NCBI RefSeq assembly: GCF_000027125.1
Contig: NC_017626.1
Source of the DNA: Escherichia coli 042
Lineage (GTDB): Bacteria; Pseudomonadota; Gammaproteobacteria; Enterobacterales; Enterobacteriaceae
Direction: 5' to 3' (one strand)
Length of the DNA stretch: 64,000 bases
Position numbers and translations under genes: made by a program. The notes beneath the pieces are model-generated. The model did no database searches, was not told the origin of the DNA, and saw only the letters and a program-made list of their open reading frames with translations. This document shows positions 1-36,630 of the stretch, piece after piece (within the stretch, counting starts at the first letter, position 1; each line of letters starts with the position of its first letter).

Positions 1-197
1 TTAGTTATACGTTTAGATATACGATTTCAAAACTCAATTAATCTACATCTTTAAAATCATGCAGTTACAGAATCAATTAAACTACTCTCGTGGCCAAAAA
101 TCCCCAAAAAAACCAACCGTAAAGGTTGGTTTTTTTATATCTGCATTTAATTCGATAAACAGACCGCGACACATCACGGCCTGTTTATTTTCTGTTA

Positions 198-2789
198 TCA
201 GAACGTCCAGACCACACCCGCCTGAGTATTCCACGGCGATTCTACCCCTGCGCCATTGCCATAACTGACAGACAAATGACCGCTTAACGTCGGGGTAAAC
301 GATGACCTTATCCCAGCCTGATAAACGCCACTGGTTCCAGCCACATCATTATTAAATTTGCCATCGTCATTAACTTTCACCTGGTTAGAATCGGCGTATT
401 CCTGACGCACGGCGGCTTTCAGCCAGGGTTCCAGCGTCGTACCGTTTTGCAGGTCCATGTGATAGCTTACCGCCGTTCCCGCTTCAGCCCGTAATATGCG
501 GGTATTTCCCACATCCGCGCGCATGCCGTTTGATAACGTGTAGTCCTGACCATCAGTGGTAAAGCCGGTAAAGGCCAGATAGGGTCTAACACTCCACAAT
601 CCGTCAACCCAACGGAACCCGCTCTCGACATGAGCACCCGCGCCGTTACTATTGTAATCGCCAAACGCTGTTGCCCCATTACTCATCTTGCCATGGATGG
701 TGTTGGCAAAACGGTCAACTTTCACCACTCCATCAACATAGGCACCGTTCTGATGCTCCCAACCGGCATAAGCCCCCAGGGTGTAGCTATCGATATTGCC
801 TTTGCCGCCGCGATCAAAACCAATATCAGAATGAGAGTAACCAAAGAACAAGCCGCGAATTGTGCTGCTTTCTTCACGGGAGAAACGGCTATCGATACCG
901 AGCGTCAGGCCCGTCAATGTTTGCTCAAAGCCAGCTCCCGCATCAGTGGTCACGTTGTTGCGGGTGTTAATTGCCGAACTCCACATCGCCGTATCGTAAT
1001 TAACGCCTTTTACGCTACCAAGACGCTCACGCACGGTGTCCAGTTCTGCATCAAATACCAGCGGTTGTGCTGCCGCCATATTCAGCACATCAGTGGTTGA
1101 AGGGGTAATTTGCGCGCGATTCTCTGCCAGACTCCAGCTATGGTTGCCATTATCCAGCAAGGTATATTCATACGTACCGATATCAACAACGCCTCCGGCA
1201 TTGCCCAACGTAAATGCAGCATCACCGCCGCCCGTTGTTACCAGTGTAAGGCTATCTCCTGCTGCCGGGCTGGCACCGGTGTCCGTCACGAATATTTTGA
1301 AATCACCTGTTGCCTGACCGGTGACGTTGAGCTGATCGCTCTGATGATTAGCCATATCGGTACGCATATAAAAATTGCCGTTTCCCGACAGGGTATTGGT
1401 GGTCAACGTAATGAAATTTTCCGCACTTGCCGTCACTGATGAACGAGTCACTGGCTCAGCCATCATAATCACATTTGCGCCGGACATCGCAAGGTTGGCT
1501 AAGTTGAGGCGAGTGTTTTGGTTCGTCGTACTGTTATCGGCAATGATGGTCCATGCGCTATTTTCGAGCGAAACATCCGCTTTGCTGGTATCCACGGCAC
1601 CATGCGTTCTAAAAGAAGCGCCCTCAGAAACCACGACCTTACCCACCAACATAGCGGGTGCATAATTTATTTGCGGCTTCATGACCTCAAGAATGCCATC
1701 ATTCCCTCTGACTGAAACGTTAACCATTGTGCCAGCCCAGACATTAGCGCGACCATTGTTGATAACCATATTTTCAGAGATGGCTTTAGAGGAATACGTT
1801 ATACTTCCATTCTGATCTGATCGACCGAGATCATATACCGCATTTGCCTGCACTCTCGTACCAGTATCCTTTCCCAGCGATTGCATAGTGGCATGCTCAT
1901 CAAGGATAGTATCAATGGCCTGCGTGTCCTCCATAACAATGAGCCCGGAACCATCATCCAGTTCATAATTTTTTGACACACCATCTTTTATACTAAATTG
2001 GCCTTTACTGTTTGTACCACTCACTTCCAGCGCATTCGTTGAGACAATTAATTGTCCGCCTGCTTTTTTATCAACGCCAGTTGCAGTCCCGCCATCCATA
2101 ACCTCCAGTAAGCCGCCACTATCCACAGTGGTATTATAAGCGAAGTCATTTTCTTCAACTCGCAAACTTCCGCCGTTTTCCAACAGCATATTATTAGCAA
2201 TACCATCCTTGATATCGAACTGACCGAGACGGTTTGTTCCGAATACCTCCATGGCCCGCGTGGTTGTTTTAATCGCACCGCCGGCTTTCTGATCTACCGC
2301 AAATGCTAATCCCCCCTCTTTAACCTCCAGTAATCCTCCCTTTTCGATAGCGGCAAAGACGGTAATCCCATCTTTTTCAATAATTAAGCGCCCGCCTTTA
2401 ATGGTGGTATCATTCGCTGCGCCATAAACCTGTAGCACACCATTATTAAGGGTAGTCTGGTTTGCCGCGCCACCCATTTGAACAATTTGATAACCGTCAT
2501 TTAATACTGAGTATTCTGCGGTGCCATTCATTTCAATGTACTGATACCCTCCGTTAATTTCAGTATTACTACTTACACCAAATTCTTTTATATGCTGTTC
2601 TCCGCCAGGATTGATTTTCGTATTATTGGCGGTCCCATAAACCAGCTGGATATCTTTTTCCAGGACAACACCATCAACTGTCTCACCATACTCAACAGTT
2701 GATGCCAATGCTATGGGTGAATATAACGCTGTAGCCACCAGAACAGATATTGCGGAACGACAAAGAGAAACAGAACCAGATTGATGCAT
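198..2789 (-). CDS. yejO: AIDA-like autotransporter adhesin, apparently intact
   Basis: 863-aa ORF with N-terminal signal peptide, Gly/Asn/Thr-rich repetitive passenger and C-terminal beta-barrel ending in aromatic residue (...VVWTF); position immediately upstream of narP. Confidence 0.8.
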   Translation of the reverse strand: MHQSGSVSLCRSAISVLVATALYSPIALASTVEYGETVDGVVLEKDIQLVYGTANNTKINPGGEQHIKEFGVSSNTEINGGYQYIEMNGTAEYSVLNDGYQIVQMGGAANQTTLNNGVLQVYGAANDTTIKGGRLIIEKDGITVFAAIEKGGLLEVKEGGLAFAVDQKAGGAIKTTTRAMEVFGTNRLGQFDIKDGIANNMLLENGGSLRVEENDFAYNTTVDSGGLLEVMDGGTATGVDKKAGGQLIVSTNALEVSGTNSKGQFSIKDGVSKNYELDDGSGLIVMEDTQAIDTILDEHATMQSLGKDTGTRVQANAVYDLGRSDQNGSITYSSKAISENMVINNGRANVWAGTMVNVSVRGNDGILEVMKPQINYAPAMLVGKVVVSEGASFRTHGAVDTSKADVSLENSAWTIIADNSTTNQNTRLNLANLAMSGANVIMMAEPVTRSSVTASAENFITLTTNTLSGNGNFYMRTDMANHQSDQLNVTGQATGDFKIFVTDTGASPAAGDSLTLVTTGGGDAAFTLGNAGGVVDIGTYEYTLLDNGNHSWSLAENRAQITPSTTDVLNMAAAQPLVFDAELDTVRERLGSVKGVNYDTAMWSSAINTRNNVTTDAGAGFEQTLTGLTLGIDSRFSREESSTIRGLFFGYSHSDIGFDRGGKGNIDSYTLGAYAGWEHQNGAYVDGVVKVDRFANTIHGKMSNGATAFGDYNSNGAGAHVESGFRWVDGLWSVRPYLAFTGFTTDGQDYTLSNGMRADVGNTRILRAEAGTAVSYHMDLQNGTTLEPWLKAAVRQEYADSNQVKVNDDGKFNNDVAGTSGVYQAGIRSSFTPTLSGHLSVSYGNGAGVESPWNTQAGVVWTF

Positions 2790-3108
2790 TGAGCTTTCAT
2801 CCTATGAAATTAATTGCTGTTAAAAGCATTGGGTAAAGAAAATACCCATAGCTCCATACCCGGAGTCAGTTTTTAAAAACTGTTTAAAGAAATGCACAAG
2901 TATTGTGATTGATTTTTTAGTTGTTTTTCTTGATGAGAAGCTGATGCAAAATTCCGTCTTTATAATGAAAATGATGCCAAAGCGAACGACAAGGTTGTAG
3001 TTTTCACTACATGTCCATACATAAAATGGGGTAACATTCACGCGCCTGGTAGCGTTACCAACGCTACGCTCAAACATAATGATTCTAATAAAACCTCAGG
3101 AGACTACT

Positions 3109-3756
3109 ATGCCTGAAGCAACGCCTTTTCAGGTGATGATTGTGGATGATCATCCACTTATGCGACGCGGTGTTCGTCAGTTACTGGAGCTTGATCCTGG
3201 CTTTGAAGTGGTCGCCGAAGCGGGCGACGGCGCGAGCGCGATCGATCTGGCGAATAGACTGGATATCGACGTGATCTTGCTGGATCTCAATATGAAAGGT
3301 ATGAGTGGCCTGGATACCCTCAATGCCTTGCGCAGGGATGGCGTTACCGCGCAAATTATTATCCTGACCGTATCAGATGCCTCCAGCGATGTCTTTGCGC
3401 TGATAGACGCAGGCGCAGACGGTTATCTGTTGAAAGATAGCGACCCGGAAGTGTTGCTGGAAGCGATTCGTGCCGGAGCGAAAGGCAGCAAAGTCTTTAG
3501 CGAACGCGTCAATCAGTACTTACGTGAACGTGAAATGTTTGGCGCGGAAGAAGATCCCTTCAGCGTGCTGACGGAGCGCGAGCTGGATGTTCTGCACGAG
3601 CTGGCACAGGGGCTGTCAAATAAACAGATTGCCTCGGTGTTGAATATTTCCGAGCAGACAGTAAAAGTACACATTCGCAATCTGCTGCGTAAACTCAATG
3701 TCCGCTCACGCGTGGCGGCCACCATTCTGTTCCTGCAACAACGCGGGGCACAATAA
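3109..3756 (+). CDS. narP: Nitrate/nitrite response regulator NarP
   Basis: Receiver domain (VMIVDDHPLMRRG) plus LuxR-type HTH; start placed at MPEATPFQ (215 aa) rather than upstream ATG of track ORF 3079. Confidence 0.9.
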   Translation: MPEATPFQVMIVDDHPLMRRGVRQLLELDPGFEVVAEAGDGASAIDLANRLDIDVILLDLNMKGMSGLDTLNALRRDGVTAQIIILTVSDASSDVFALIDAGADGYLLKDSDPEVLLEAIRAGAKGSKVFSERVNQYLREREMFGAEEDPFSVLTERELDVLHELAQGLSNKQIASVLNISEQTVKVHIRNLLRKLNVRSRVAATILFLQQRGAQ

Positions 3757-3761
3757 AAATA

Positions 3762-3792
3762 GCCCGATGGCATCACCATCGGGCCTCTTTTT
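3762..3792. terminator. Bidirectional rho-independent terminator between convergent narP and ccmH
   Basis: GC hairpin gcccgatggcatcaccatcgggc flanked by A-run upstream and T-run downstream. Confidence 0.6.
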
Positions 3793-12699: not shown

Positions 12700-15186
12700 T
12701 TACACCTTCTCCAGTTTGACCGCGCACTTCTTGAAGTCCGTCTCTTTCGAGAGCGGATCGGTCGCATCCAGCGTCAGTTTGTTAACCAGCTGTGCGGCGT
12801 CGAAGAACGGCATGTACACCAGGCCCTGCGGCGGACGGTTACGACCGCGCGTTTCGACAATCGAGATCACTTCGCCACGGCGAGAAACCACTTTCACTTT
12901 GTCGCCACGGCGCAGATCGCGCGCTTTCGCATCCAACGGGTGAATAAACAGGACCGCTTCCGGGAAGGCACGGTGCAGTTCCGGTACACGGCGAGTCATA
13001 CTGCCGGTATGCCAGTGCTCCAGGACGCGTCCGGTAGAGAGCCACAGGTCGTACTCTTCATCCGGTGCCTCCGCCGCCGGTTCGAACGGCAGCGCGAAGA
13101 TCACCGCTTTGCCATCCGGTTTACCGTAGAACTTGTAGCCTTCGCCCGCTTTCACGTATGGGTCGTTACCTTCGCTGTAACGCCACTGCGTTTCTTTACC
13201 GTTCACTACCGGCCAGCGCAGACCGCGTGCTTTGTGGTAATCATCGAACGGTGCCAGATCGTGACCGTGACCACGACCAAACCATGCGTACTCTTCGAAC
13301 AGCCCTTTTTGCAGATAGAAGCCCAGCTCGCGGGATTCATCGTTCAGCTGATCTTCCGCCAGTTCTGATACCGGGAATTTGCTCACTTCCGGGGTGGCAT
13401 ACAGAACTTCGTACAGCGTTTTGCCACGCAGTTCCGGTTTCTTCGCCAGCAGCTCTTCCGGCCATACTTCTTCAGTTTTGAAGCGGCGGGAGAACTGGAC
13501 TAACTGCCAGAGATCCGATTTCGCTTCGCCCGGTGCCTGTACCTGCTGACGCCAGAATTGAGTACGGCGTTCGGCGTTACCGTAAGCCCCCTCTTTCTCT
13601 ACCCACATTGCGGTCGGCAGAATCAAGTCCGCTGCCAGCGCACTGACTGTCGGATACGGATCGGAGACGATGATGAAGTTGCGCGGATCGCGCCAGCCCG
13701 GCATACGCTCTTCATTGATGTTCGGCCCGGCCTGCATGTTGTTGGTACACATGGTCCAGTAAACATTCAGCTTGCCGTCTTTCAGCGCACGGTCTTGTGC
13801 CACCGCGTGCAGACCGATTTTCGCCGGAATGGTGCCGCTCGGGATATTCCACTTCTTCTCGCAGATATCACGGTGTTTCTCGTTAGTCACCACCATGTCC
13901 GCAGGCAGACGGTGAGCAAAGGTGCCCACTTCACGCGCAGTACCACACGCGGAAGGCTGCCCGGTCAGGGAGAACGGACCGCAACCCGGCTGGGAAATTT
14001 TGCCGGTCAGCAGGTGCAGGTTGTAGACCAGGTTGTTGGCCCACACGCCACGAGTATGCTGGTTGAAGCCCATCGTCCAGTAGGAGATGACTTTCTTGTT
14101 CGGATCGGCATACAGCTGCGCCAGTTGTTCCAGCTGATCTTTTGGTACGCCAGTCATTTCGGCGGTTTTTTCCAGCGTATACTCGGCAACGAAGGCTTTG
14201 TAATCTTCAAAGCTCATCGGTTCGGAGGCGTCAGAACCCGGATTCTTCGCTGCTTTTTCCAGCGGATGGGTCGGACGTAAACCGTAGCCGATGTCCGTCG
14301 CCCCTTTGCGCAGGTTAACGTGCTTGCTGAAGAAGTCCTGATTTATCGCATTGTTTTGAATGATATAGTTGGCGATGTAGTTCAGGATCACCAGGTCAGA
14401 TTGCGGCGTAAAGATGATGCCGTTATCCGCCAGCTCGAAGCTACGATGCTGGTAGGTAGAAAGCACCGCCACGGTGACGTTCTGGTTAGAGAGACGACGG
14501 TTAGTGATGCGTGACCAGAGGATCGGGTGCATCTCCGCCATGTTAGCGCCCCACAGCACAAACGCGTCAGCCTGCTCGATGTCGTCATAGCAGCCCATCG
14601 GCTCATCCATACCAAAGGTACGCATAAAGCCAACTACTGCCGACGCCATACAGTGACGCGCGTTCGGGTCGATGTTGTTCGAACGGAAGCCCGCTTTAAA
14701 CAGCTTGGACGCGGCATAACCTTCCCAGATAGTCCACTGACCAGAACCGAACATACCGATCGACTCCGGCCCTTTTTCTTTCAGGGCGGTTTTGAATTTC
14801 TCTTCCATCACATCGAAGGCCTGATCCCAGGTGATTGGGGTAAATTCGCCTTCTTTGTCATATTTACCGTTTTTCATACGCAGCAGCGGCTGCGTCAAAC
14901 GGTCTTTACCGTACATGATTTTGGGCAGGAAATAGCCCTTAATGCAGTTCAGACCACGGTTAACCGGTGCGTCCGGGTCGCCCTGACAGGCCACCACACG
15001 CCCCTGCTGCGTTCCGACCAGAACGCCGCAACCAGTACCGCAGAAACGGCACGGCGCTTTATCCCATTTAATGGCTTCCTGCTGACCAACAACGGCGCGG
15101 GCAACGCCCGGCACGCTGAGACCGGCAGCCGCCGCAGCGGCCGCAACGGCGTTAGCTTTCATAAAGCTACGACGACTGAGTTTCAT
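12700..15186 (-). CDS. napA: Periplasmic nitrate reductase catalytic subunit NapA
   Basis: 828 aa molybdoenzyme, Tat signal ([10 protein letters not shown]...), N-terminal Cys cluster CRFCGTGCG. Confidence 0.95.
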
Positions 15187-25358: not shown

Positions 25359-28031
25359 ATGCGTCAGAAAGAGACAACGGCCACGACCCGCTTTTCACTC
25401 CTACCGGGGAGCATTACCCGCTTCTTTTTACTGTTGATCATTGTGTTACTGGTGACGATGGGGGTAATGGTACAAAGTGCCGTTAACGCCTGGCTGAAAG
25501 ATAAAAGTTACCAGATTGTCGACATTACCCACGCAATCCAAAAGCGCGTCGATACCTGGCGTTACGTGACCTGGCAGATTTACGACAACATTGCCGCGAC
25601 GACCTCCCCCTCCTCCGGCGAAGGTTTACAAGAGACGCGCCTGAAACAGGATGTCTACTATCTGGAGAAACCACGCCGCAAAACGGAAGCGTTAATCTTT
25701 GGCTCTCACGACAACTCAACGCTTGAGATGACTCAACGGATGTCCACTTATCTGGATACATTGTGGGGCGCAGAAAATGTACCGTGGTCGATGTATTACC
25801 TGAATGGTCAGGATAACAGTCTGGTGCTGATCTCAACCCTGCCCCTCAAAGATCTCACCTCCGGTTTTAAAGAATCGACCGTCAGCGACATTGTTGATTC
25901 ACGTCGTGCAGAGATGTTGCAACAGGCCAACGCCCTCGATGAACGCGAAAGCTTTTCTAACATGCGCCGCCTGGCCTGGCAGAACGGTCATTACTTTACC
26001 TTGCGTACCACCTTTAACCAGCCGGGACATCTGGCAACGGTTGTGGCTTTTGATCTGCCGATTAATGATTTGATCCCACCGGGTATGCCGCTGGACAGTT
26101 TCCGCCTTGAGCCAGACGCGACGGCAACGGGAGACAATGATAATGAGAAAGAAGGGACGGATAGCGTCAGTATCCACTTTAACAGTACGAAGATTGAAAT
26201 CTCCTCGGCACTCAACTCTACCGATATGCGACTGGTCTGGCAGGTTCCTTATGGCACCTTATTGCTGGATACGTTGCAAAACATTCTGCTGCCACTGCTG
26301 CTGAACATCGGTTTGCTGGCGCTGGCGTTATTTGGCTATACCACATTCCGCCATTTCTCCAGTCGCAGTACAGAAAGTCTACCCAACACGGCGGTCAATA
26401 ACGAATTGCGCATTTTACGGGCAATCAATGAAGAGATAGTCTCACTGCTGCCGCTCGGCCTGCTGGTTCACGATCAGGAATCGAACCGCACTGTCATAAG
26501 TAACAAAATTGCCGATCATTTGCTGCCGCATTTGAATCTGCAAAACATCACCACCATGGCGGAACAGCATCAGGGGATTATTCAGGCGACGATCAATAAC
26601 GAGCTGTATGAGATCCGCATGTTCCGCAGCCAGGTCGCGCCGCGCACACAAATTTTCATTATTCGCGATCAGGATCGCGAAGTGCTGGTAAACAAGAAAC
26701 TCAAGCAGGCGCAGCGTCTGTATGAGAAAAACCAGCAGGGGCGGATGACCTTTATGAAAAACATTGGCGATGCGCTGAAAGAACCTGCACAGTCCCTGGC
26801 GGAGAGCGCGGCTAAACTCAACGCCCCGGAAAGCAAACAACTGGCGAATCAGGCAGATGTGCTGGTGCGGCTGGTCGATGAAATACAGTTAGCGAACATG
26901 CTTGCGGACGATAGCTGGAAAAGTGAGACGGTGCTGTTCTCCGTGCAGGATTTGATTGATGAAGTTGTGCCTTCAGTGTTGCCTGCCATCAAGCGTAAAG
27001 GTCTGCAACTGCTGATTAACAATCATCTGAAAGCACACGATATGCGCCGCGGCGATCGCGATGCCTTACGACGTATTTTGCTGCTACTGATGCAATATGC
27101 CGTGACCTCAACGCAATTGGGAAAAATCACCCTTGAGGTTGATCAGGATGAGTCCTCCGAAGACCGCCTGACGTTCCGCATTCTGGACACCGGAGAAGGC
27201 GTAAGCATTCATGAAATGGATAATTTGCACTTCCCGTTTATCAACCAGACCCAAAACGATCGCTATGGCAAGGCGGACCCGCTGGCATTCTGGCTGAGCG
27301 ATCAACTGGCACGTAAACTGGGCGGCCATTTAAACATTAAAACGCGGGATGGGCTTGGTACACGCTACTCTGTGCATATCAAAATGCTCGCAGCTGACCC
27401 GGAAGTTGAAGAGGAAGAAGAGCGTTTACTGGATGATGTCTGCGTAATGGTGGATGTTACTTCGGCAGAAATTCGGAATATTGTCACTCGCCAGTTAGAA
27501 AATTGGGGTGCAACCTGTATCACACCCGATGAAAGATTAATTAGTCAAGATTATGATATCTTTTTAACGGATAATCCGTCTAATCTTACTGCCTCTGGCT
27601 TGCTTTTAAGCGATGATGAGTCTGGCGTACGGGAAATTGGGCCTGGTCAATTGTGCGTCAACTTCAATATGAGCAACGCTATGCAGGAAGCGGTCTTACA
27701 ATTAATTGAAGTGCAACTGGCGCAGGAAGAGGTGACAGAATCGCCTCTGGGCGGAGATGAAAATGCGCAACTCCATGCCAGCGGCTATTATGCGCTCTTT
27801 GTAGACACAGTACCGGATGATGTTAAGAGGCTGTATACTGAAGCAGCAACCAGTGACTTTGCTGCGTTAGCCCAAACGGCTCATCGTCTTAAAGGCGTAT
27901 TTGCCATGCTAAATCTGGTACCCGGCAAGCAGTTATGTGAAACGCTGGAACATCTGATTCGTGAGAAGGATGTTCCAGGAATAGAAAAATACATCAGCGA
28001 CATTGACAGTTATGTCAAGAGCTTGCTGTAG
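25359..28031 (+). CDS. rcsD: Phosphotransfer intermediate RcsD (YojN)
   Basis: 890 aa, N-terminal TM/periplasmic domain, degenerate kinase-like region, C-terminal HPt domain; immediately upstream of rcsB. Confidence 0.9.
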   Translation: MRQKETTATTRFSLLPGSITRFFLLLIIVLLVTMGVMVQSAVNAWLKDKSYQIVDITHAIQKRVDTWRYVTWQIYDNIAATTSPSSGEGLQETRLKQDVYYLEKPRRKTEALIFGSHDNSTLEMTQRMSTYLDTLWGAENVPWSMYYLNGQDNSLVLISTLPLKDLTSGFKESTVSDIVDSRRAEMLQQANALDERESFSNMRRLAWQNGHYFTLRTTFNQPGHLATVVAFDLPINDLIPPGMPLDSFRLEPDATATGDNDNEKEGTDSVSIHFNSTKIEISSALNSTDMRLVWQVPYGTLLLDTLQNILLPLLLNIGLLALALFGYTTFRHFSSRSTESLPNTAVNNELRILRAINEEIVSLLPLGLLVHDQESNRTVISNKIADHLLPHLNLQNITTMAEQHQGIIQATINNELYEIRMFRSQVAPRTQIFIIRDQDREVLVNKKLKQAQRLYEKNQQGRMTFMKNIGDALKEPAQSLAESAAKLNAPESKQLANQADVLVRLVDEIQLANMLADDSWKSETVLFSVQDLIDEVVPSVLPAIKRKGLQLLINNHLKAHDMRRGDRDALRRILLLLMQYAVTSTQLGKITLEVDQDESSEDRLTFRILDTGEGVSIHEMDNLHFPFINQTQNDRYGKADPLAFWLSDQLARKLGGHLNIKTRDGLGTRYSVHIKMLAADPEVEEEEERLLDDVCVMVDVTSAEIRNIVTRQLENWGATCITPDERLISQDYDIFLTDNPSNLTASGLLLSDDESGVREIGPGQLCVNFNMSNAMQEAVLQLIEVQLAQEEVTESPLGGDENAQLHASGYYALFVDTVPDDVKRLYTEAATSDFAALAQTAHRLKGVFAMLNLVPGKQLCETLEHLIREKDVPGIEKYISDIDSYVKSLL

Positions 28032-28902: not shown

Positions 28903-31747
28903 ATTCCCGCGATTTCCTGACCCTCTCGGCATATACCGTCAGCGTCTGTTTTATCACATCCAGCGTTACCGGCTTCGACAGGCAGCTGTCCATACCGGAC
29001 TCCAGACACCGCTGCTTCTCTTCAGCCAACGCATTAGCAGTTACTCCGATTACCGGCAACGTCAGTCCCAACTGACGAATGCGTTGCGTCAAGCGGTAAC
29101 CATCCATATTTGGCATGTTGACGTCGCTAAGCACGATATCAATATGATTCTTGCTAAGTACATTAAGCGCATCGACGCCATCATTCGCGGTTTTACATTG
29201 ATAGCCCAACGATCCCAACTGATCTGCCAGCAGACGTCGGTTAATCGGATGATCATCCACGACCAGAATCATCATATCGTCATTATCGCTGACCGCTTTG
29301 TCCGTCGACGGCAGAGCGTTAGCAGGATCGTCGCTCTCCATCTCGATCAAATAAATACGCGCCAACAATGCCGGTAGCTCATGCGGAGCAGCCACACTGT
29401 GTACCCACTCTCCTGGCGCTTTCTCCAGCGGAATACCAATATGTCGACGACAGAAGGTCACTACCGCTCTGCCCTGCCATTTTTTACTCACTACCTCGTC
29501 AGTGATTAACACATCTTCGGGAGTCGGTTCCTGCCCTTCGTATGTTGTTACGACGATGCCGCTGCGCTGCAAACTGTTTTCCAGGAACTGACAGAGCGAC
29601 GCATTGCGGACCGCCAGCCAGCAGCGTTTACCACTCAACCCTTCCACGCCTTTTTTCTGCGGGTACTGAGCGCCGTACAACGGAATACGCACGGTAAACT
29701 GGCTGCCCATTCCCGGTTCTGAATCTACCGAGATATCGCCGTCCATCATGCTGATCAGTTTTTCACAAATCGCCAGACCCAGACCGGTCCCCTGGAAGTT
29801 TCGCTGTACGCCCGTTCCGACCTGGAAGAAGGGATCAAACAAGCGCACCACTTCTTTCGCCGGAATCCCCACGCCGGTATCGCGAACACGGATAGAGAGA
29901 TAATCGCCATCAGCGCGAACATGTAGAACTATACAGCCGGTATCGGTGAATTTTATGGCGTTACTCAACAGATTGGAGATGACCTGCTGTAAACGCATCG
30001 GGTCGCCATTTAAGGCCACTGGCACATCCGGTTCAATAAAGCAGTACAAGCCTAGCTGCTTGCGTACCACCAGCGGTAAATAGTTGGCGGTGATGTGGTT
30101 CATCACTTCACGCGGTGAAAACTCACGCGGTTCGATCTTCAACTGTTCCGATTCAATCTTCGAGAAATCGAGAATATCGCTGATAATTTTCAACAACAGG
30201 CTGGAAGAGTTGTTCATTGCCGTCACCAGACGATCGACGCCTTTCGGTAACTCTTTGGTTTGCAAAAGATCCAGGTTACCGATAATGCCATACAGCGGCG
30301 TTCGCAGCTCATGACTGACGGTGGCAAGGAACATCGATTTTGACTGGCTCGCCTGTTCCGCTGCTTGTGCCATCTCCTGCAACGACTCTTCCATCTTCAC
30401 GCGCGAAGAAACATCCACCAGCACACAAATGGCCACGTTTTCATTACGATAGCGCGAATGGACGAAGCTGATTTGCAGATTGGTATTGTTGCTGGTCAGG
30501 ACATCAACAAAATTGACCTGCTGCCCACAGATAATTTGTGTCAGCCGTTGGCGGTCCTCATGCGTAAGCATATTGAGATAGGTATGCGCCAGTTCGTTAC
30601 TTAAAATATTGACGCCATCAGCGGTACGCAAAATGCAGATACCCACTGGCGCGGAGGCGACAATCTTGCGATTAAACTGCTCATGTTCTTCCAGTCGCAA
30701 GGCGTCGCTTTCCGCCGGAATGAAAATACGCCGCTCGTACATCCGCGCGAGAGTAAACAATGCAGCTCCGGCAAGCACATTCAGCAAAATTGCGTTAAGG
30801 ATCAACATGCGAATGCGTTCCAGCACCTTATCAACCGGCACCGAATACACGATGCTTAGCGATGAGGGTGGCAGATTTTTCTTCAGCACCAGCTCCCGGA
30901 ACCCTTCCGTATAGCCAAACCAGGAGCGTTCCTGCATCCAGCGAGGATCGCCCTTAATTTTGCTTTCTGGTCCGGTAAGCGAAATCAGGGTATGACCATT
31001 TTCATCAAGAATGGTAACCCCCATCGGCAACGTACCAGGTAAGAAAAAGTTCTCCATCCGGATGGTCTGCTCGACACCCAAAAGCGCCTGCAACCGGTTC
31101 GCCAGATAAACTGGCGTCAACGCGTAAAAATACCCGACGCCAGGGCGCGGACCTTCGCTGATCCAGTAGAGGTTACTGCCGCTATCATCTTGTGGTGCAT
31201 TTCGATATTTATTGATGCGTTCATGCAACGCTTTCAACGCGGTATCGCGTTCCACTGGCATATCACGCAGACCGAAATTGGCCATGCAGAGGTTATCGCT
31301 GCCGATTAAAAATACCCGGTTGAGATCGTAAGCTGCAGAGAAATTATCGCGCCAGTAGCGCATAAACCACGCCAATGACTCCAGAGAGCCTCGCCAGGTG
31401 TTACTCATTGCGGAACAATCGGAGTCGGCAAACAGCGGTTCAAACGCAGGCACATCCGCCTGCGTTTCTCGTCCACGCGGGGAAAGCACACCGTTTTCTG
31501 CCGATAAGCGATTTTCGGCGATGTACTTCAGCTCTTTCATCACATCAGAGGTGCGTTGAATAAAGCGCTGAGCCTGATCGGAACTCAGATTAAATTCCTG
31601 ACGAATTTCCGATTCTCGCTGATGTAACGCATTAACGATGTAAAAAACGGATGAAAAAGCAATCAACAGCCAGAGCACTAACGCCAATGCTCTGAACATG
31701 TAGCGCGAGGCTTTCAGGGTTGTACGAAAAGAAGCAAGGTATTTCAA
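28898..31747 (-). CDS. rcsC: Hybrid sensor histidine kinase RcsC
   Basis: 949 aa, two TM segments flanking periplasmic domain, HisKA/HATPase, C-terminal receiver. Confidence 0.9.
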
Positions 31748-31913
31748 AGGGGCGAAGCTCCGCCTCAGGTGACCGATGGAGTGTGGTTAAGGTAGCGGTA
31801 AAAGCGTGTTACCGCAATGTTCTCTCTTCTCTGGAATATGATACACCGCCGAGAAATCATCACCTTAACCTCTGATAATCGTCATATACCGGACAAGACT
31901 AGTGGATTTCAGC

Positions 31914-33740
31914 ATGCATTATATGAAGTGGATTTATCCACGCCGCTTACGCAATCAAATGATTCTGATGGCAATCCTGATGGTCATTGTCCCAACGCTT
32001 ACTATTGGTTATATCGTAGAAACGGAAGGACGTTCAGCAGTCTTATCTGAAAAAGAGAAAAAACTTTCTGCCGTGGTCAACCTGCTTAATCAGGCACTAG
32101 GCGATCGCTATGATCTCTACATCGACTTACCACGTGAGGAGCGTATCCGCGCATTAAATGCAGAACTTGCCCCCATTACCGAAAATATCACTCACGCCTT
32201 CCCTGGCATCGGCGCTGGTTATTACAACAAAACGCTGGATGCGATAATCACCTACGCGCCTTCAGCGCTATATCAGAATAATGTCGGCGTTACCATTGCC
32301 GCAGATCACCCTGGTCGCGAAGTCATGCGTACAAATACCCCTTTGGTTTATTCAGGCAGGCAGGTGCGCGGCGATATTTTGAATTCAATGATCCCCATTG
32401 AGCGTAATGGTGAAATCCTCGGCTATATCTGGGCCAATGAATTAACCGAAGATATTCGCCGCCAGGCCTGGAAAATGGATGTGAGGATTATCATTGTGCT
32501 CACCGCCGGTTTGCTGATAAGCCTGCTGTTGATTGTCCTTTTCTCCCGTCGCCTGAGCGCCAATATTGATATCATCACCGATGGCCTCTCGACTCTGGCG
32601 CAAAATATTCCCACTCGATTACCACAATTGCCCGGTGAAATGGGGCAAATCAGTCAGAGTGTTAACAACCTCGCCCAGGCACTGCGTGAAACGCGGACAC
32701 TTAACGATCTGATTATTGAAAACGCTGCCGATGGCGTCATTGCCATTGACCGCCAGGGTGATGTAACCACCATGAACCCGGCAGCAGAAGTCATCACTGG
32801 CTATCAACGTCATGAACTGGTAGGGCAGCCTTACTCCATGTTGTTCGACAATACTCAGTTCTACAGTCCAGTACTGGATACGCTGGAACATGGCACCGAA
32901 CATGTGGCGCTGGAGATCAGTTTTCCAGGCCGTGACCGCACCATTGAACTCAGTGTCACTACCAGTCGTATTCATAACACGCATGGTGAAATGATAGGTG
33001 CTTTGGTGATTTTCTCTGATTTAACTGCCCGCAAAGAAACCCAGCGCCGCATGGCGCAAGCAGAACGCCTCGCCACACTGGGTGAGCTGATGGCTGGCGT
33101 CGCGCATGAAGTACGTAATCCGCTAACGGCTATTCGTGGTTATGTACAGATCTTGCGCCAACAAACCAGCGACCTAATACATCAGGAATATCTGTCCGTA
33201 GTACTCAAAGAAATCGATTCAATTAACAAAGTTATTCAGCAATTGCTCGAATTTTCACGTCCACGCCACAGTCAATGGCAACAAGTCAGTCTCAATGCAT
33301 TGGTTGAAGAAACTCTGGTACTGGTACAAACCGCCGGCGTACAAGCGCGGGTCGACTTCATAAGCGAACTGGATAATGAATTAAACCCGATTAACGCCGA
33401 TCGTGAACTGCTCAAACAGGTACTACTGAATATCCTGATCAATGCCGTCCAGGCTATCAGCGCACGAGGGAAAATTCGCATTCAAACCTGGCAATACAGC
33501 GACTCACAACAGGCCATTTCGATAGAGGACAACGGCTGTGGCATTGATCTCTCGCTGCAAAAAAAGATCTTCGATCCCTTTTTCACCACCAAAGCCTCTG
33601 GAACCGGGCTTGGTCTGGCGTTAAGTCAACGCATCATTAATGCCCATCAGGGTGATATTCGCGTCGCCAGTTTGCCGGGCTACGGCGCAACCTTCACGCT
33701 TATTTTACCGATCAATCCGCAGGGAAATCAGACTGTATGA
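31914..33740 (+). CDS. atoS: Sensor histidine kinase AtoS
   Basis: Membrane sensor with PAS, HisKA (H-box GVAHEVRNPL) and HATPase domains; start set at MHYMKW (608 aa); 4-nt overlap with atoC. Confidence 0.85.
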   Translation: MHYMKWIYPRRLRNQMILMAILMVIVPTLTIGYIVETEGRSAVLSEKEKKLSAVVNLLNQALGDRYDLYIDLPREERIRALNAELAPITENITHAFPGIGAGYYNKTLDAIITYAPSALYQNNVGVTIAADHPGREVMRTNTPLVYSGRQVRGDILNSMIPIERNGEILGYIWANELTEDIRRQAWKMDVRIIIVLTAGLLISLLLIVLFSRRLSANIDIITDGLSTLAQNIPTRLPQLPGEMGQISQSVNNLAQALRETRTLNDLIIENAADGVIAIDRQGDVTTMNPAAEVITGYQRHELVGQPYSMLFDNTQFYSPVLDTLEHGTEHVALEISFPGRDRTIELSVTTSRIHNTHGEMIGALVIFSDLTARKETQRRMAQAERLATLGELMAGVAHEVRNPLTAIRGYVQILRQQTSDLIHQEYLSVVLKEIDSINKVIQQLLEFSRPRHSQWQQVSLNALVEETLVLVQTAGVQARVDFISELDNELNPINADRELLKQVLLNILINAVQAISARGKIRIQTWQYSDSQQAISIEDNGCGIDLSLQKKIFDPFFTTKASGTGLGLALSQRIINAHQGDIRVASLPGYGATFTLILPINPQGNQTV

Positions 33741-35122
33741 CTGCTATTAATCGCATCCTTATTGTGGATGATGAAGATAATGTTCGCCGTATGCTGAGCA
33801 CCGCTTTTGCACTACAAGGATTCGAAACACATTGTGCGAACAACGGACGCACAGCATTACACCTGTTTGCCGATATTCACCCTGACGTGGTGTTGATGGA
33901 TATCCGCATGCCAGAGATGGACGGCATCAAGGCACTCAAGGAGATGCGCAGCCATGAGACACGGACCCCCGTTATTCTGATGACGGCCTATGCTGAAGTG
34001 GAAACCGCCGTCGAAGCGCTACGCTGCGGGGCCTTCGACTATGTTATCAAACCGTTTGATCTCGATGAGTTGAATTTAATCGTTCAGCGCGCTTTACAAC
34101 TCCAGTCAATGAAAAAAGAGATCCGTCATCTGCACCAGGCACTGAGCACCAGCTGGCAATGGGGGCACATTCTCACCAACAGCCCTGCGATGATGGATAT
34201 CTGCAAAGACACCGCCAAAATTGCCCTTTCTCAGGCCAGCGTCTTGATTAGCGGTGAAAGCGGCACCGGGAAAGAGTTGATTGCCAGAGCGATTCACTAC
34301 AATTCGCGGCGGGCAAAGGGGCCGTTCATTAAAGTCAACTGCGCGGCGCTGCCGGAATCGTTGCTCGAAAGTGAACTGTTTGGTCATGAAAAAGGTGCAT
34401 TTACTGGTGCACAAACCTTGCGTCAGGGATTATTTGAACGTGCCAACGAAGGTACTCTGCTCCTCGACGAAATTGGCGAAATGCCGCTCGTACTGCAAGC
34501 CAAATTACTACGCATTCTGCAGGAACGGGAATTTGAACGGATTGGCGGCCATCAGACCATAAAAGTTGATATCCGCATCATTGCTGCCACCAACCGTGAC
34601 TTGCAGGCAATGGTAAAAGAAGGCACCTTCCGTGAAGATCTCTTTTATCGCCTTAACGTTATTCATTTAATACTGCCGCCTCTGCGCGATCGCCGGGAAG
34701 ATATTTCCCTGTTAGCTAATCACTTTTTGCAAAAATTCAGTAGTGAGAATCAGCGCGATATTATCGACATCGATCCGATGGCAATGTCACTGCTTACCGC
34801 CTGGTCATGGCCGGGAAATATTCGAGAGCTTTCCAACGTTATTGAACGCGCCGTCGTGATGAACTCAGGCCCGATCATTTTTTCTGAGGATCTTCCGCCG
34901 CAGATTCGTCAGCCAGTCTGTAATGCTGGCGAGGTAAAAACATCCCCTGTCGGTGAGCGTAATTTAAAAGAGGAAATTAAACGCGTCGAAAAACGCATCA
35001 TTATGGAAGTGCTGGAACAACAAGAAGGAAACCGAACCCGCACTGCTTTAATGCTGGGCATCAGTCGCCGTGCATTGATGTATAAACTCCAGGAATACGG
35101 TATCGATCCGGCGGATGTATAA
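33737..35122 (+). CDS. atoC: Sigma-54-dependent response regulator AtoC
   Basis: 461 aa: receiver, AAA+ sigma-54 activator domain (GESGTGKE, GAFTGA motif), C-terminal HTH. Confidence 0.9.
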   Translation: MTAINRILIVDDEDNVRRMLSTAFALQGFETHCANNGRTALHLFADIHPDVVLMDIRMPEMDGIKALKEMRSHETRTPVILMTAYAEVETAVEALRCGAFDYVIKPFDLDELNLIVQRALQLQSMKKEIRHLHQALSTSWQWGHILTNSPAMMDICKDTAKIALSQASVLISGESGTGKELIARAIHYNSRRAKGPFIKVNCAALPESLLESELFGHEKGAFTGAQTLRQGLFERANEGTLLLDEIGEMPLVLQAKLLRILQEREFERIGGHQTIKVDIRIIAATNRDLQAMVKEGTFREDLFYRLNVIHLILPPLRDRREDISLLANHFLQKFSSENQRDIIDIDPMAMSLLTAWSWPGNIRELSNVIERAVVMNSGPIIFSEDLPPQIRQPVCNAGEVKTSPVGERNLKEEIKRVEKRIIMEVLEQQEGNRTRTALMLGISRRALMYKLQEYGIDPADV

Positions 35123-35133
35123 CGCCAAAACTT

Positions 35134-35174
35134 GCTATGCAGAAATTTGCACAGTGCGCAATTTTCTGCATAGC
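35134..35174. promoter_or_regulatory. AtoC enhancer-like inverted repeat upstream of atoD
   Basis: gctatgcagaaa-N17-tttctgcatagc, a perfect 12-bp inverted repeat centred about 129 bp upstream of the inferred sigma-54 start. Confidence 0.6.
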
Positions 35175-35256
35175 CGCTCATTCTCCTTATGAATCCCCAT
35201 CTAATTTATCCCTTCATATTCAATTAGTTAAATAACAAAATCCAATAATCTCATTC

Positions 35257-35272
35257 TGGCACTCCCCTTGCT
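35257..35272 (+). promoter_or_regulatory. Sigma-54 (-24/-12) promoter of atoDAEB
   Basis: TGGCAC-tcccc-TTGCT matches TGGCAC-N5-TTGCW, 46 bp upstream of atoD start codon. Confidence 0.65.
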
Positions 35273-35317
35273 ATTCCATGACTGTACCCACAACGGTGTA
35301 TGCAAGAGGGATAAAAA

Positions 35318-35980
35318 ATGAAAACAAAATTGATGACATTACAAGACGCCACCGGCTTCTTTCGTGACGGCATGACCATCATGGTGGGCGGATTTATGGG
35401 GATTGGCACTCCATCCCGCCTGGTTGAAGCATTACTGGAATCTGGTGTTCGCGACCTGACATTGATAGCCAATGATACCGCGTTTGTTGATACTGGCATC
35501 GGTCCGCTCATCGTCAATGGTCGAGTCCGCAAAGTGATTGCTTCACATATCGGCACCAACCCGGAAACAGGTCGGCGCATGATATCTGGTGAGATGGACG
35601 TCGTTCTGGTGCCGCAAGGTACGCTAATCGAGCAAATTCGCTGTGGTGGAGCTGGACTTGGTGGTTTTCTCACCCCAACGGGTGTCGGCACCGTCGTAGA
35701 GGAAGGCAAACAGACACTGACACTCGACGGTAAAACCTGGCTGCTCGAACGCCCACTGCGCGCCGACCTGGCGCTAATTCGCGCTCATCGTTGCGACACA
35801 CTTGGCAACCTGACCTATCAACTTAGCGCCCGCAACTTTAACCCCCTGATAGCCCTTGCGGCTGATATCACGCTGGTAGAGCCAGATGAACTGGTCGAAA
35901 CCGGCGAGCTGCAACCTGACCATATTGTCACCCCTGGTGCCGTTATCGACCACATCATCGTTTCACAGGAGAGCAAATAA
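35318..35980 (+). CDS. atoD: Acetate CoA-transferase subunit alpha
   Basis: 220 aa CoA-transferase family I subunit A. Confidence 0.9.
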
Positions 35981-36630
35981 TGGATGCGAAACAACGTATT
36001 GCGCGCCGTGTGGCGCAAGAGCTTCGTGATGGTGACATCGTTAACTTAGGGATCGGTTTACCCACAATGGTCGCCAATTATTTACCGGAGGGTATTCATA
36101 TCACTCTGCAATCGGAAAACGGCTTCCTCGGTTTAGGCCCGGTCACGACAGCGCATCCAGATCTGGTGAACGCTGGCGGACAACCGTGCGGTGTTTTACC
36201 CGGTGCAGCCATGTTTGATAGCGCCATGTCATTTGCGCTAATCCGCGGCGGTCATATTGATGCCTGCGTGCTCGGCGGTTTGCAAGTAGACGAAGAAGCA
36301 AACCTCGCGAACTGGGTAGTGCCTGGGAAAATGGTGCCCGGTATGGGTGGCGCGATGGATCTGGTGACCGGGTCGCGCAAAGTGATCATCGCCATGGAAC
36401 ATTGTGCCAAAGATGGTTCAGCAAAAATTTTGCGCCGCTGCACCATGCCACTCACTGCGCAACATGCGGTGCATATGCTGGTTACTGAACTGGCTGTCTT
36501 TCGTTTTATTGACGGCAAAATGTGGCTCACCGAAATTGCCGACGGGTGTGATTTAGCCACCGTGCGTGCCAAAACCGAAGCTCGGTTTGAAGTCGCCGCC
36601 GATCTGAATACGCAACGGGGTGATTTATGA
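35980..36630 (+). CDS. atoA: Acetate CoA-transferase subunit beta
   Basis: 216 aa CoA-transferase subunit B; start overlaps atoD stop. Confidence 0.9.
   Translation: MDAKQRIARRVAQELRDGDIVNLGIGLPTMVANYLPEGIHITLQSENGFLGLGPVTTAHPDLVNAGGQPCGVLPGAAMFDSAMSFALIRGGHIDACVLGGLQVDEEANLANWVVPGKMVPGMGGAMDLVTGSRKVIIAMEHCAKDGSAKILRRCTMPLTAQHAVHMLVTELAVFRFIDGKMWLTEIADGCDLATVRAKTEARFEVAADLNTQRGDL

Follow-up and report, generated by a model that had tools for sequence, protein, structure and literature searches.

The left end of the window (the whole 64,000-nt stretch of Escherichia coli 042 DNA that was analysed) is very probably the standard yejO locus of E. coli in its ancestral, uninterrupted state, with a terminator shared by proL and yejO and with the end of an element integrated at proL. 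The region is matched at 90–99% identity in 5,424 of 5,426 complete E. coli genomes, and an intact yejO is the usual state of the species.

The yejO gene and its product

The yejO CDS is found at 198–2789 on the minus strand. It has 863 codons, an ATG start and a single terminal stop (198–200), with no internal stops or frameshifts, and its length and boundaries are those of the YejO CDS in the RefSeq records of strains GN25, TUM9803 and 23CRST013. These features bear out the original prediction of an intact 863-aa ORF. The encoded protein, a predicted intact type Va autotransporter, starts with a signal peptide, continues with a passenger carrying AIDA and pertactin-like domains and ends in an autotransporter barrel, with Phe as the last residue.

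On inspection, the translated N-terminus (MHQSGSVSLCRSAISVLVATALYSPIALA|ST) resembles a signal peptide of the Sec type – it has one Arg as its basic residue, a hydrophobic core and an A-x-A (A-L-A) motif, with cleavage predicted at ALA|ST. The codons for this segment (residues 1–29; 2703–2789, minus strand) had no variable sites among the five alleles compared. The passenger contains two tandem 74-aa units, residues 151–224 and 225–298 (1896–2339, minus strand), which are 52% identical to each other (E 2e-23) and correspond to Pfam AIDA domains. The Pfam AIDA model matches YejO in two stretches (E 1.5e-51), and the TIGR04415 repeat model in three. A pertactin-like domain (PF03212, E 5.3e-45) at the C-terminal end of the passenger, residues 431–555 (1125–1499, minus strand), has a putative autochaperone role; its sequence relatives in the PDB include pertactin (1dab) and Vag8 (7akv). 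The beta-barrel translocator is at residues 602–841 (267–986, minus strand; PF03797, E 6.1e-46). TIGR01414 matches residues 456–863 (E 1e-110, 370.6 bits against a cut-off of 16), and a search of solved structures aligned the BrkA barrel (3qq2) to residues 582–863. The protein ends in ...VVWTF (201–215, minus strand), giving it an aromatic terminal residue within a WTF end.

The sequence relatives of YejO in the PDB include Ag43, TibA, Vag8, the BrkA barrel and pertactin. The beta-helix nature of the passenger is predicted from sequence matches to the solved beta-helices of Ag43, TibA and pertactin. Judged from its sequence, YejO is a classical monomeric (type Va) autotransporter of the AIDA-I/Ag43 kind, and this family assignment is unambiguous.

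If YejO behaves like other members of its family, the 29-residue signal peptide would take it through Sec, and the C-terminal ca. 270 residues would be inserted by BAM as a beta-barrel, with the terminal WTF motif helping. The passenger of ca. 540 residues would then be threaded outward, folding as a beta-helix of AIDA-type rungs that include the two 74-aa tandem units, with the pertactin-like domain as its cap. Once exposed, it would most likely serve as an adhesin or aggregation factor. Adhesin activity is suggested by the homologues of YejO; no functional study of the intact protein was found in the searchable literature. A passenger with enzymatic or toxic activity instead, for instance a protease like the SPATEs, is highly unlikely. 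The search of solved structures does list the IgA1 protease (3h09) and Hap (3syj), but both matches are confined to residues ca. 396–571, the pertactin-like region near the C-terminal end of the passenger. Pfam and NCBIfam detect no peptidase domain in YejO, and the best matches to its passenger are the Ag43, TibA and AIDA adhesins.

The disrupted copy in strain K-12

The original prediction described yejO as an IS-disrupted pseudogene in K-12, and the annotation of b2190 agrees: two fragments of 67 nt and 2525 nt are separated by IS5K. The disruption is also described in the literature (PMC11005336). The insertion point is after nt 67 of the gene, within the signal-peptide codons. The equivalent site in the window, the ATAA at 2723–2726 (minus strand; gene nt 64–67), is uninterrupted, as judged from the K-12 feature table and junction sequences. 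When the K-12 fragments are rejoined they encode an in-frame product of 863 aa, which matches the window protein at 842 of the 863 residues and aligns with it without indels. Neither an intact K-12 copy nor a frameshift in the window ORF was found.

Distribution of yejO and selection on it

The intactness of the gene had been put forward as noteworthy; full-length YejO turned out to be the norm, both in complete genomes and in published surveys. Most of the 5,426 complete E. coli genomes have a full-length "autotransporter YejO" as the RefSeq annotation of this locus, and among the matches listed the feature at full-length matches is "yejO: autotransporter YejO". At least 80% of the gene is covered in 4,281 genomes, a count that takes in IS5-split copies of the K-12 type because the search joins pieces across an insertion. 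The exact sequence of the window protein is found in 223 blocks of public assemblies. The window gene falls in the YejO orthologue group: it is collinear over its full length, has high identity and has its position between proL and narP. The narP gene starts at 3109 and is divergent from yejO, as in K-12; on the other side of yejO the terminator and spacer are kept and proL has been displaced by an insertion.

About one-fifth of complete genomes, of the UPEC/ST131 type, retain only ca. 30–36% of yejO (ca. 1,140 have large internal deletions), so some lineages can do without the gene. Truncation in UPEC/ST131-type strains has been published (PMC5654935), and according to published surveys (PMC3426408, citing Wells 2010) commensals and diarrhoeagenic strains carry YejO, whereas UPEC have a truncated form.

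Sequence comparisons indicate purifying selection on yejO. The window protein and that of GN25 (WP_122989533.1) are identical at 855 of 863 residues with no indels, and the length of 863 aa is kept exactly, without indels, across alleles ca. 2% divergent in DNA. The dN/dS ratio was 0.08–0.28 for the whole gene, 0.04–0.13 for the barrel and 0.06–0.38 for the passenger.

The region between the divergent yejO and narP genes (2790–3108) is a 36% GC regulatory region, and it is very highly conserved – 318 of its 319 nt are identical in K-12. A block of 406 nt that joins it to the signal-peptide codons (2703–3108) is at least 99% identical in 4,367 of 5,423 genomes. A promoter scan of 2790–3108 found no consensus sigma-70 promoter, and for this reason no promoter is put forward for yejO. 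When folded, the 319-nt region showed no evidence of RNA structure (z −1.4). An ORF of 85 aa at 2820–3077 was dismissed, as it is located in this conserved, AT-rich regulatory region and has no annotated counterpart in the RefSeq records inspected.

The gene could be intact and yet cryptic, silenced in the manner of H-NS targets or decaying, and with no present role; its frame would then be open simply because nothing has disrupted it so far in this lineage. This is unlikely, though several observations fit it: the upstream region is AT-rich (36% GC) with no consensus promoter, expression is near-absent in K-12 data sets, the gene is reported missing from ST131, and loss or truncation has been repeated, through IS5 in K-12 and through the internal deletions described above. 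Against it, dN/dS is well under 1, especially in the barrel, the length is constant, and the block containing the regulatory region and the signal peptide is conserved. Together these three features argue for a maintained function in most lineages.

The terminator between proL and yejO

The 197 bp downstream of the yejO stop had been described as AT-rich, and they are: bases 1–197 are 32.5% GC, compared to 48.4% for yejO and 51.6% for the whole window. Within them is a symmetric hairpin at 106–136, AAAAAAACCAACC-GTAAA-GGTTGGTTTTTTT, which was recognized from a terminator scan, folds of both strands and conservation in K-12. It has a 13-bp stem and a 5-nt loop, with A7 before the stem and T7 after it. 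The plus strand folds at −16.3 kcal/mol (z −3.2) and the minus strand at −17.0 kcal/mol (z −3.0). The hairpin runs into T7 on the plus strand; on the minus strand the T7 after it is followed by GGGG. The hairpin is conserved in K-12, where it lies 20 nt after proL. It is best read as a predicted bidirectional intrinsic terminator, ancestrally common to the convergent genes proL (plus strand) and yejO (minus strand). The assignment of this hairpin to an upstream plus-strand gene was therefore right in part – it is terminator-like and lies just past proL in K-12 – but the symmetry of A7 and T7 means that it can terminate yejO as well. The remaining bases to the yejO stop (137–197) are chromosomal spacer, which aligns with K-12 and GN25 and has three differences from K-12.

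An Rfam scan of 1–3300 gave one match, to OrzO-P (RF02083), on the minus strand at 106–178, below threshold and on the terminator. A small RNA or other element here, such as an antitoxin RNA like OrzO/OrzP, is nonetheless very improbable. The match is weak (27.9 bits, E 0.14), far under the gathering threshold of 60 bits, and is anchored on the generic hairpin and U-run. No ORF for a zorO-like toxin is in the ORF list of this stretch, and a position after a tRNA gene and a convergent CDS suits a terminator. The match was put down to chance similarity with a generic hairpin. Also dismissed was a plus-strand ORF of 69 aa at 59–268, which overlaps both the terminator and the 3' end of yejO and has no annotated counterpart in the RefSeq records inspected.

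The end of an element integrated at proL

Bases 1–84 are the right-hand end of an integrative element of ca. 8.2 kb at proL, the rest of which is to the left of the window. They do not align with K-12, where proL holds this position, and the window diverges from both K-12 and the comparison sequence C4 to the left of position 85. In 70 of the 5,426 complete genomes the 84 bases match the right end of the element, in one place each, and this copy adjoins yejO in the three genomes inspected (GN25, TUM9803 and 23CRST013). They are also identical in the public assembly L007, a carrier of the whole element. With the adjoining attR they account for the left half of the AT-rich 197 bp.

The original prediction expected a tRNA-Pro gene just outside the window. 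The distance from the end of proL to the yejO stop is 101–102 nt in K-12, C4 and the assemblies L008 and L010, so that proL would occupy ca. 19–95 of the window. An unoccupied locus with the K-12 spacing of 102 nt would hold the gene inside the window, and ARAGORN finds no tRNA at ca. 19–95. The gene expected there has probably been displaced ca. 8.1 kb by the element. There is almost no chance that bases 1–197 are a plain AT-rich intergenic spacer, with proL and possibly an island just past the window edge. AT-richness and the yejM-proL synteny expected from K-12 are in keeping with such a spacer, but the missing tRNA and the match of 1–84 to the end of the element refute it.

The junction of the element with the chromosome, attR, is at 85–100 on the plus strand. 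Alignments of attB, attL and attR show that it repeats the 3' end of tRNA-Pro(GGG) in degenerate form: CTCTCGTGGCCAAAAA in the window, compared to CTCTCGTGCCGACCAAAA in proL. A crossover core of ACCAAA can be deduced from attL (CTCTCGTGCCGACCAAATCGACC) and the attR of L007 (CTCTCGTGACCAAAAATCCCC), and the circular junction of an excised element would read CTCTCGTG-ACCAAA-TCGACC. Position 93, within this core, is G in the window and A in L007, a difference that might block excision. Scans of genome and metagenome contigs gave no exact match to a 45-nt string spanning the attR and terminator of the window, because of this one-base difference from an otherwise identical public assembly.

At the left edge of the window, bases 1–23 (plus strand) hold tandem repeats of 11 and 12 nt, TTAGTTATACG and TTAGATATACG (Tandem Repeats Finder: period 12, 1.9 copies). 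These are putative arm-type binding sites for the integrase of the element, which has an Arm-DNA-bind_3 domain. In TUM9803, 23CRST013 and L007 the repeat pair is also present ca. 130 nt inward from attL of the element; TUM9803 and 23CRST013 have, in addition, one inverted copy close to the right end.

The window shows the last 84 nt of the element. The source genome probably has the rest as well, judging from L007, which matches the window at 12,788 of 12,789 nt and carries the whole element, with proL 8,087 nt before window position 1. The assembly L008 is identical to the window over 12,696 nt and has an empty site. In GN25, TUM9803 and 23CRST013 the element sits between proL and yejO; in these strains and in L007, the integrase gene is next to the tRNA gene at the proximal junction, left of the window. 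These arrangements suggest that an element of ca. 8.2 kb with a tyrosine integrase was integrated into the 3' end of proL, which would put the tRNA gene ca. 8.1 kb past the left edge of the window.

The genes of the element encode the integrase, an AlpA-like regulator, an Icd-like protein, a DUF927 primase/helicase, an SSB, a ProQ/FinO protein and a PerC-like protein. Annotation, Pfam and PHROGs revealed no genes for capsid size, packaging or helper exploitation. Only ca. 260 nt matched deposited phage genomes, in Stx-phage sequence, and this did not link the element with any named phage or satellite. Nothing relevant was found in the literature on an E. coli island integrated at proL. It is possible, though decidedly improbable, that this is a currently mobile, uncharacterised element of the satellite type whose PerC-family activator or RNA-binding ProQ/FinO protein acts on host genes, conceivably on the adjacent, normally silent yejO.

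The locus had also been proposed as an integration hotspot, and the proL-yejO junction is indeed used for integration: it is split in ca. 485 of the 5,426 complete genomes, and a prophage remnant is integrated at the tRNA-Pro/yejO site in Shigella flexneri (PMC4924310). The element is present in L007 and absent from L008 on otherwise identical backgrounds of 12.7 kb. Such an insertion polymorphism at proL, due to a small element with an integrase gene, might be useful for marking lineages.

Comparison with known systems

The closest known counterpart of the window gene is yejO of E. coli K-12 (b2190, "adhesin-like autotransporter YejO"), its orthologue at the same locus adjoining narP. The two copies have the same length of 2,592 nt and are identical at 97.8% of nucleotides and 97.6% of amino acids, and the regulatory regions differ by the single nucleotide noted above. 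The K-12 gene is split by IS5K and is a pseudogene, whereas the window copy is unbroken; on the proL side, K-12 has proL 102 nt from the yejO stop and the window has the element end and attR. The comparison guards against a bias centred on K-12: what is a pseudogene in that reference strain is normally unbroken and conserved in others. Most E. coli outside B2 have an intact yejO, and the gene is under purifying selection.

Like the self-associating type Va adhesins Ag43, AIDA-I and TibA, YejO has a signal peptide, AIDA-type beta-helix repeats, a pertactin-like junction and a C-terminal beta-barrel, which in type Va autotransporters is 12-stranded in solved structures. It matches solved structures of Ag43 (7koh, E 6e-37) and TibA (4q1q, E 2e-27), and at 863 aa it is shorter than the ca. 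1,040–1,290 aa of Ag43, AIDA-I and TibA. By sequence score it is a relative of the Ag43/Cah and AIDA-I equivalog families of NCBIfam and a member of neither, because its scores (133.6 bits for NF033177 and 73.2 bits for NF033176) are far under the cut-offs of 1200. As a further difference, yejO has no heptosyltransferase gene of the Aah/TibC type next to it.

The hairpin at 106–136 resembles bidirectional intrinsic terminators between convergent genes in being a short stem-loop between an A-run and a T-run, so that each strand reads a hairpin plus a U-tract. It differs from the usual examples in that the GC-containing part of its stem is only 6 bp (CCAACC/GGTTGG). Since the insertion, proL would be served instead by another hairpin, which the element brings with it at attL.

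The element itself is like the tRNA-targeted elements with a replication module, P4-like satellites and PICI-like islands: it has a tyrosine integrase by attL, a tRNA 3' end as target and a partial duplicate at attR, and it shares with them an AlpA-like regulator, an Icd-like protein and a primase/helicase. Unlike them, it has no recognisable genes for capsid size, packaging or helper exploitation. The gtrIC prophage remnant of Shigella flexneri 1c has the same chromosomal site as its prophage boundary (PMC4924310).

The yejO gene and its product

The yejO ORF (198..2789, minus strand) encodes 863 aa from an ATG start, and the ORF list gives it a single stop, at the end only. Pfam finds AIDA in two stretches (E 1.5e-51), a Pertactin domain (aa 431-555) and an Autotransporter beta-domain (aa 602-841), and the NCBIfam model TIGR01414 matches aa 456-863 with 370.6 bits. 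Judged by eye, the N-terminus, MHQSGSVSLCRSAISVLVATALYSPIALA followed by ST, looks like a Sec signal peptide. The passenger is repetitive, with tandem units at aa 151-224 and 225-298 that share 52% identity, and the C-terminal residues are ...VVWTF. These results agree with the original prediction of an intact 863-aa gene with a signal peptide, a repetitive passenger, a barrel and a final Phe. The tail at bases 1..197, described there as AT-rich, has a GC content of 32.5%, compared to 48.4% in the gene.

Relatives of YejO with solved structures, found by sequence, are Ag43 (7koh), TibA (4q1q), Vag8 (7akv), the BrkA barrel (3qq2) and pertactin (1dab). From its architecture and these relatives, YejO is classed as a classical type Va autotransporter of the AIDA-I kind. 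The protein would be exported by Sec and its barrel put into the membrane with the help of BAM; the passenger would then be secreted, with folding of the beta-helix nucleated by the pertactin-like segment. A role in adhesion or aggregation is likely. Because evidence of expression is weak, a cryptic or conditionally silenced yejO is a live alternative to an active gene – a promoter scan found no consensus promoter for yejO, and in an RNA-seq compendium few genes are expressed less often than the K-12 fragment.

yejO in K-12 and other E. coli genomes

The expectation that yejO is an IS-disrupted pseudogene in K-12 was confirmed. The MG1655 annotation gives b2190 as a pseudogene split by IS5K into pieces of 67 nt and 2,525 nt, and disruption by IS5K has also been reported elsewhere (PMC11005336, PMC11677980). 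The IS5K site corresponds to window 2723..2726 (ATAA), within the signal-peptide codons. Without the IS, K-12 yejO is 2,592 nt long, in frame and free of indels relative to the window gene, from which it differs at 56 nt and 22 aa. Neither an equally intact K-12 gene nor an overlooked internal frameshift was found, since the K-12 copy is IS-split and the window frame is unbroken.

A match to yejO is present in 5,421 of 5,426 complete E. coli genomes, and full-length matches are annotated 'autotransporter YejO'. At least 80% of the gene is covered in 4,281 genomes, a count that takes in K-12-type IS-split copies because the search bridges pieces over the 1.2-kb IS; in about 1,140, internal deletion has left only ~30-36% of it. 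An exact copy of the window's 863-aa protein is found in 223 blocks of a public assembly index. A passage in PMC3426408, citing Wells et al. 2010, states that commensal and diarrhoeagenic genomes have YejO and that UPEC have it in truncated form, and ST131 has been reported to lack it (PMC5654935). An intact yejO is not remarkable in E. coli. Among five alleles, pairwise dN/dS was 0.08-0.28 (translocator 0.04-0.13, passenger 0.06-0.38), consistent with a gene that is being maintained and varies more in its surface-exposed part.

An element inserted between proL and yejO

In K-12, the 3' end of proL (tRNA-Pro GGG) is 102 nt from the yejO stop. The original prediction had a tRNA-Pro gene just outside the window; this was not borne out, as proL in a collinear genome would fall inside, at about 19..95. 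ARAGORN found no tRNA there, and the K-12 alignment fails left of about position 85. Window 1..96 is matched in 70 complete genomes, at a single place in each, and in strains GN25, TUM9803 and 23CRST013 an element of ~8.2 kb between proL and yejO ends on the right with this sequence. Encoded on this element are a tyrosine integrase, an AlpA-like excisionase/regulator, ash and Icd-like proteins, a DUF4222 protein, a DUF927 primase/helicase, an SSB, a ProQ/FinO-family protein and a PerC-family regulator. The sole annotated gene in its right arm of ~1.2 kb (L004:14800..16000 and L007:12790..13990) encodes a 50-aa hypothetical protein, for which there was no PHROG match.

An exact-protein look-up found assembly GCA_036599305.1 (L007), which matches the window at 12,788 of 12,789 positions and contains the element. 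The upstream sequence, proposed for inspection for tRNA-Pro and integrase genes, can be seen in this near-identical genome, with the proL 3' end 8,087 nt left of window position 1. Assembly GCA_012820675.1 (L008) shares 12,696 nt with the window without a difference, as far as the att core; its site is empty, and proL lies 101 nt from the stop codon of yejO. Since the occupied and the empty assembly both otherwise match the window, the element is, as judged from these alignments, an insertion polymorphism on one chromosomal background. Of 5,426 complete genomes, 4,941 have a K-12-like proL-yejO junction and about 485 a split one, and in Shigella flexneri 1c the tRNA-Pro/yejO site also borders a prophage remnant (PMC4924310), so the suggestion of an integration hotspot was right in kind.

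Comparison of the empty site attB (CTCTCGTGCCGACCAAAAATCCCC) with the junctions attL on the proL side (CTCTCGTGCCGACCAAATCGACC) and attR on the yejO side (CTCTCGTGACCAAAAATCCCC, from L007) gives a crossover core of ACCAAA. The sole difference between the window and GCA_036599305.1 over 12,789 nt, G in place of A at position 93, falls in the deduced attR core and could affect excision of the element. Tandem repeats TTAGTTATACG/TTAGATATACG at window 1..23 are also present just inside attL, and the integrase has an Arm-DNA-binding domain; the repeats are plausibly its arm-type sites.

The predicted intergenic terminator

A hairpin at 106..136, with a 13-bp stem and a 5-nt loop, can form on both strands (-16.3 kcal/mol on the plus and -17.0 on the minus strand, z about -3 each) and is also flagged by a terminator scan. 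Its K-12 counterpart lies 20 nt past the proL 3' end, marking it as the probable natural proL terminator, in line with its earlier reading as the terminator of an upstream plus-strand gene. Because the hairpin is symmetric (A7 - CCAACC - loop - GGTTGG - T7), the yejO strand also has a hairpin and U-run, and the structure is best read as a predicted bidirectional terminator between convergent genes. After insertion it no longer stands behind proL. A hairpin and T-run of the element (GCCCGCTAATTCATTGAATAGCGGGCTTTTTT) directly follows proL at attL (L007:20750..20880 and L003:8540..8630, outside the window), and is predicted to replace the terminator cut off by the insertion.

The terminator loop (119..123) is GTAAA in the window, GN25, L007 and L008, CTTAC in K-12 and TUM9803, and ATTAC in 23CRST013. 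As the reverse complement of GTAAA is TTTAC, the two classes of allele appear to differ by a loop inversion inside a perfectly palindromic stem, for which template switching is a possible mechanism. The polymorphism is unrelated to the presence or absence of the element.

The adjoining region

The segment 2703..3108 (the yejO-narP intergenic region and yejO signal-peptide codons) is far more conserved than the flanking genes. Among five alleles it has 1 variable site in 406, compared to 2.8-4.6% in the rest of yejO and 3.9% in ccmH; it is at least 99% identical in 4,367 of 5,423 genomes, a level reached by the yejO CDS in only 1. Searches of it for structured RNA and for a consensus promoter were negative. 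The narP ORF as called mechanically begins at 3079 (225 aa; extension 3079..3108), while NarP as annotated in K-12 and RefSeq has 215 aa, from the ATG at 3109 with AGGAG ahead. The narP-ccmH gap (3757..3790) is 34 nt in the window, GN25, 23CRST013 and C4 and 210 nt in K-12 and TUM9803 – an indel polymorphism between convergent genes, perhaps a REP-type insert.

Several complete genomes (C4, A10, HYM1) match window 30001..36000 at 100% identity. Window 85..~27,200 has 390 differences from C4 (~1.3%), and its best identity to any complete RefSeq genome is 98.5-98.9%. The break near 27,200 falls within rcsD, and the region resembles a recombination tract, 27 kb or longer, that adjoins the proL insertion site.

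Comparison with known systems

YejO belongs to neither the Ag43 nor the AIDA-I equivalog family, as its scores are far under the family cut-offs. Remaining interest lies in its function and regulation, and in the nature of the small proL element, which is mostly beyond the window. Integrative elements that target tRNA genes are a familiar class. YejO is annotated in RefSeq and has appeared in the literature from 2010 at the latest, and the IS5K disruption in K-12 is documented. All of the features match annotated or published ones and are already known; none departs from its family.
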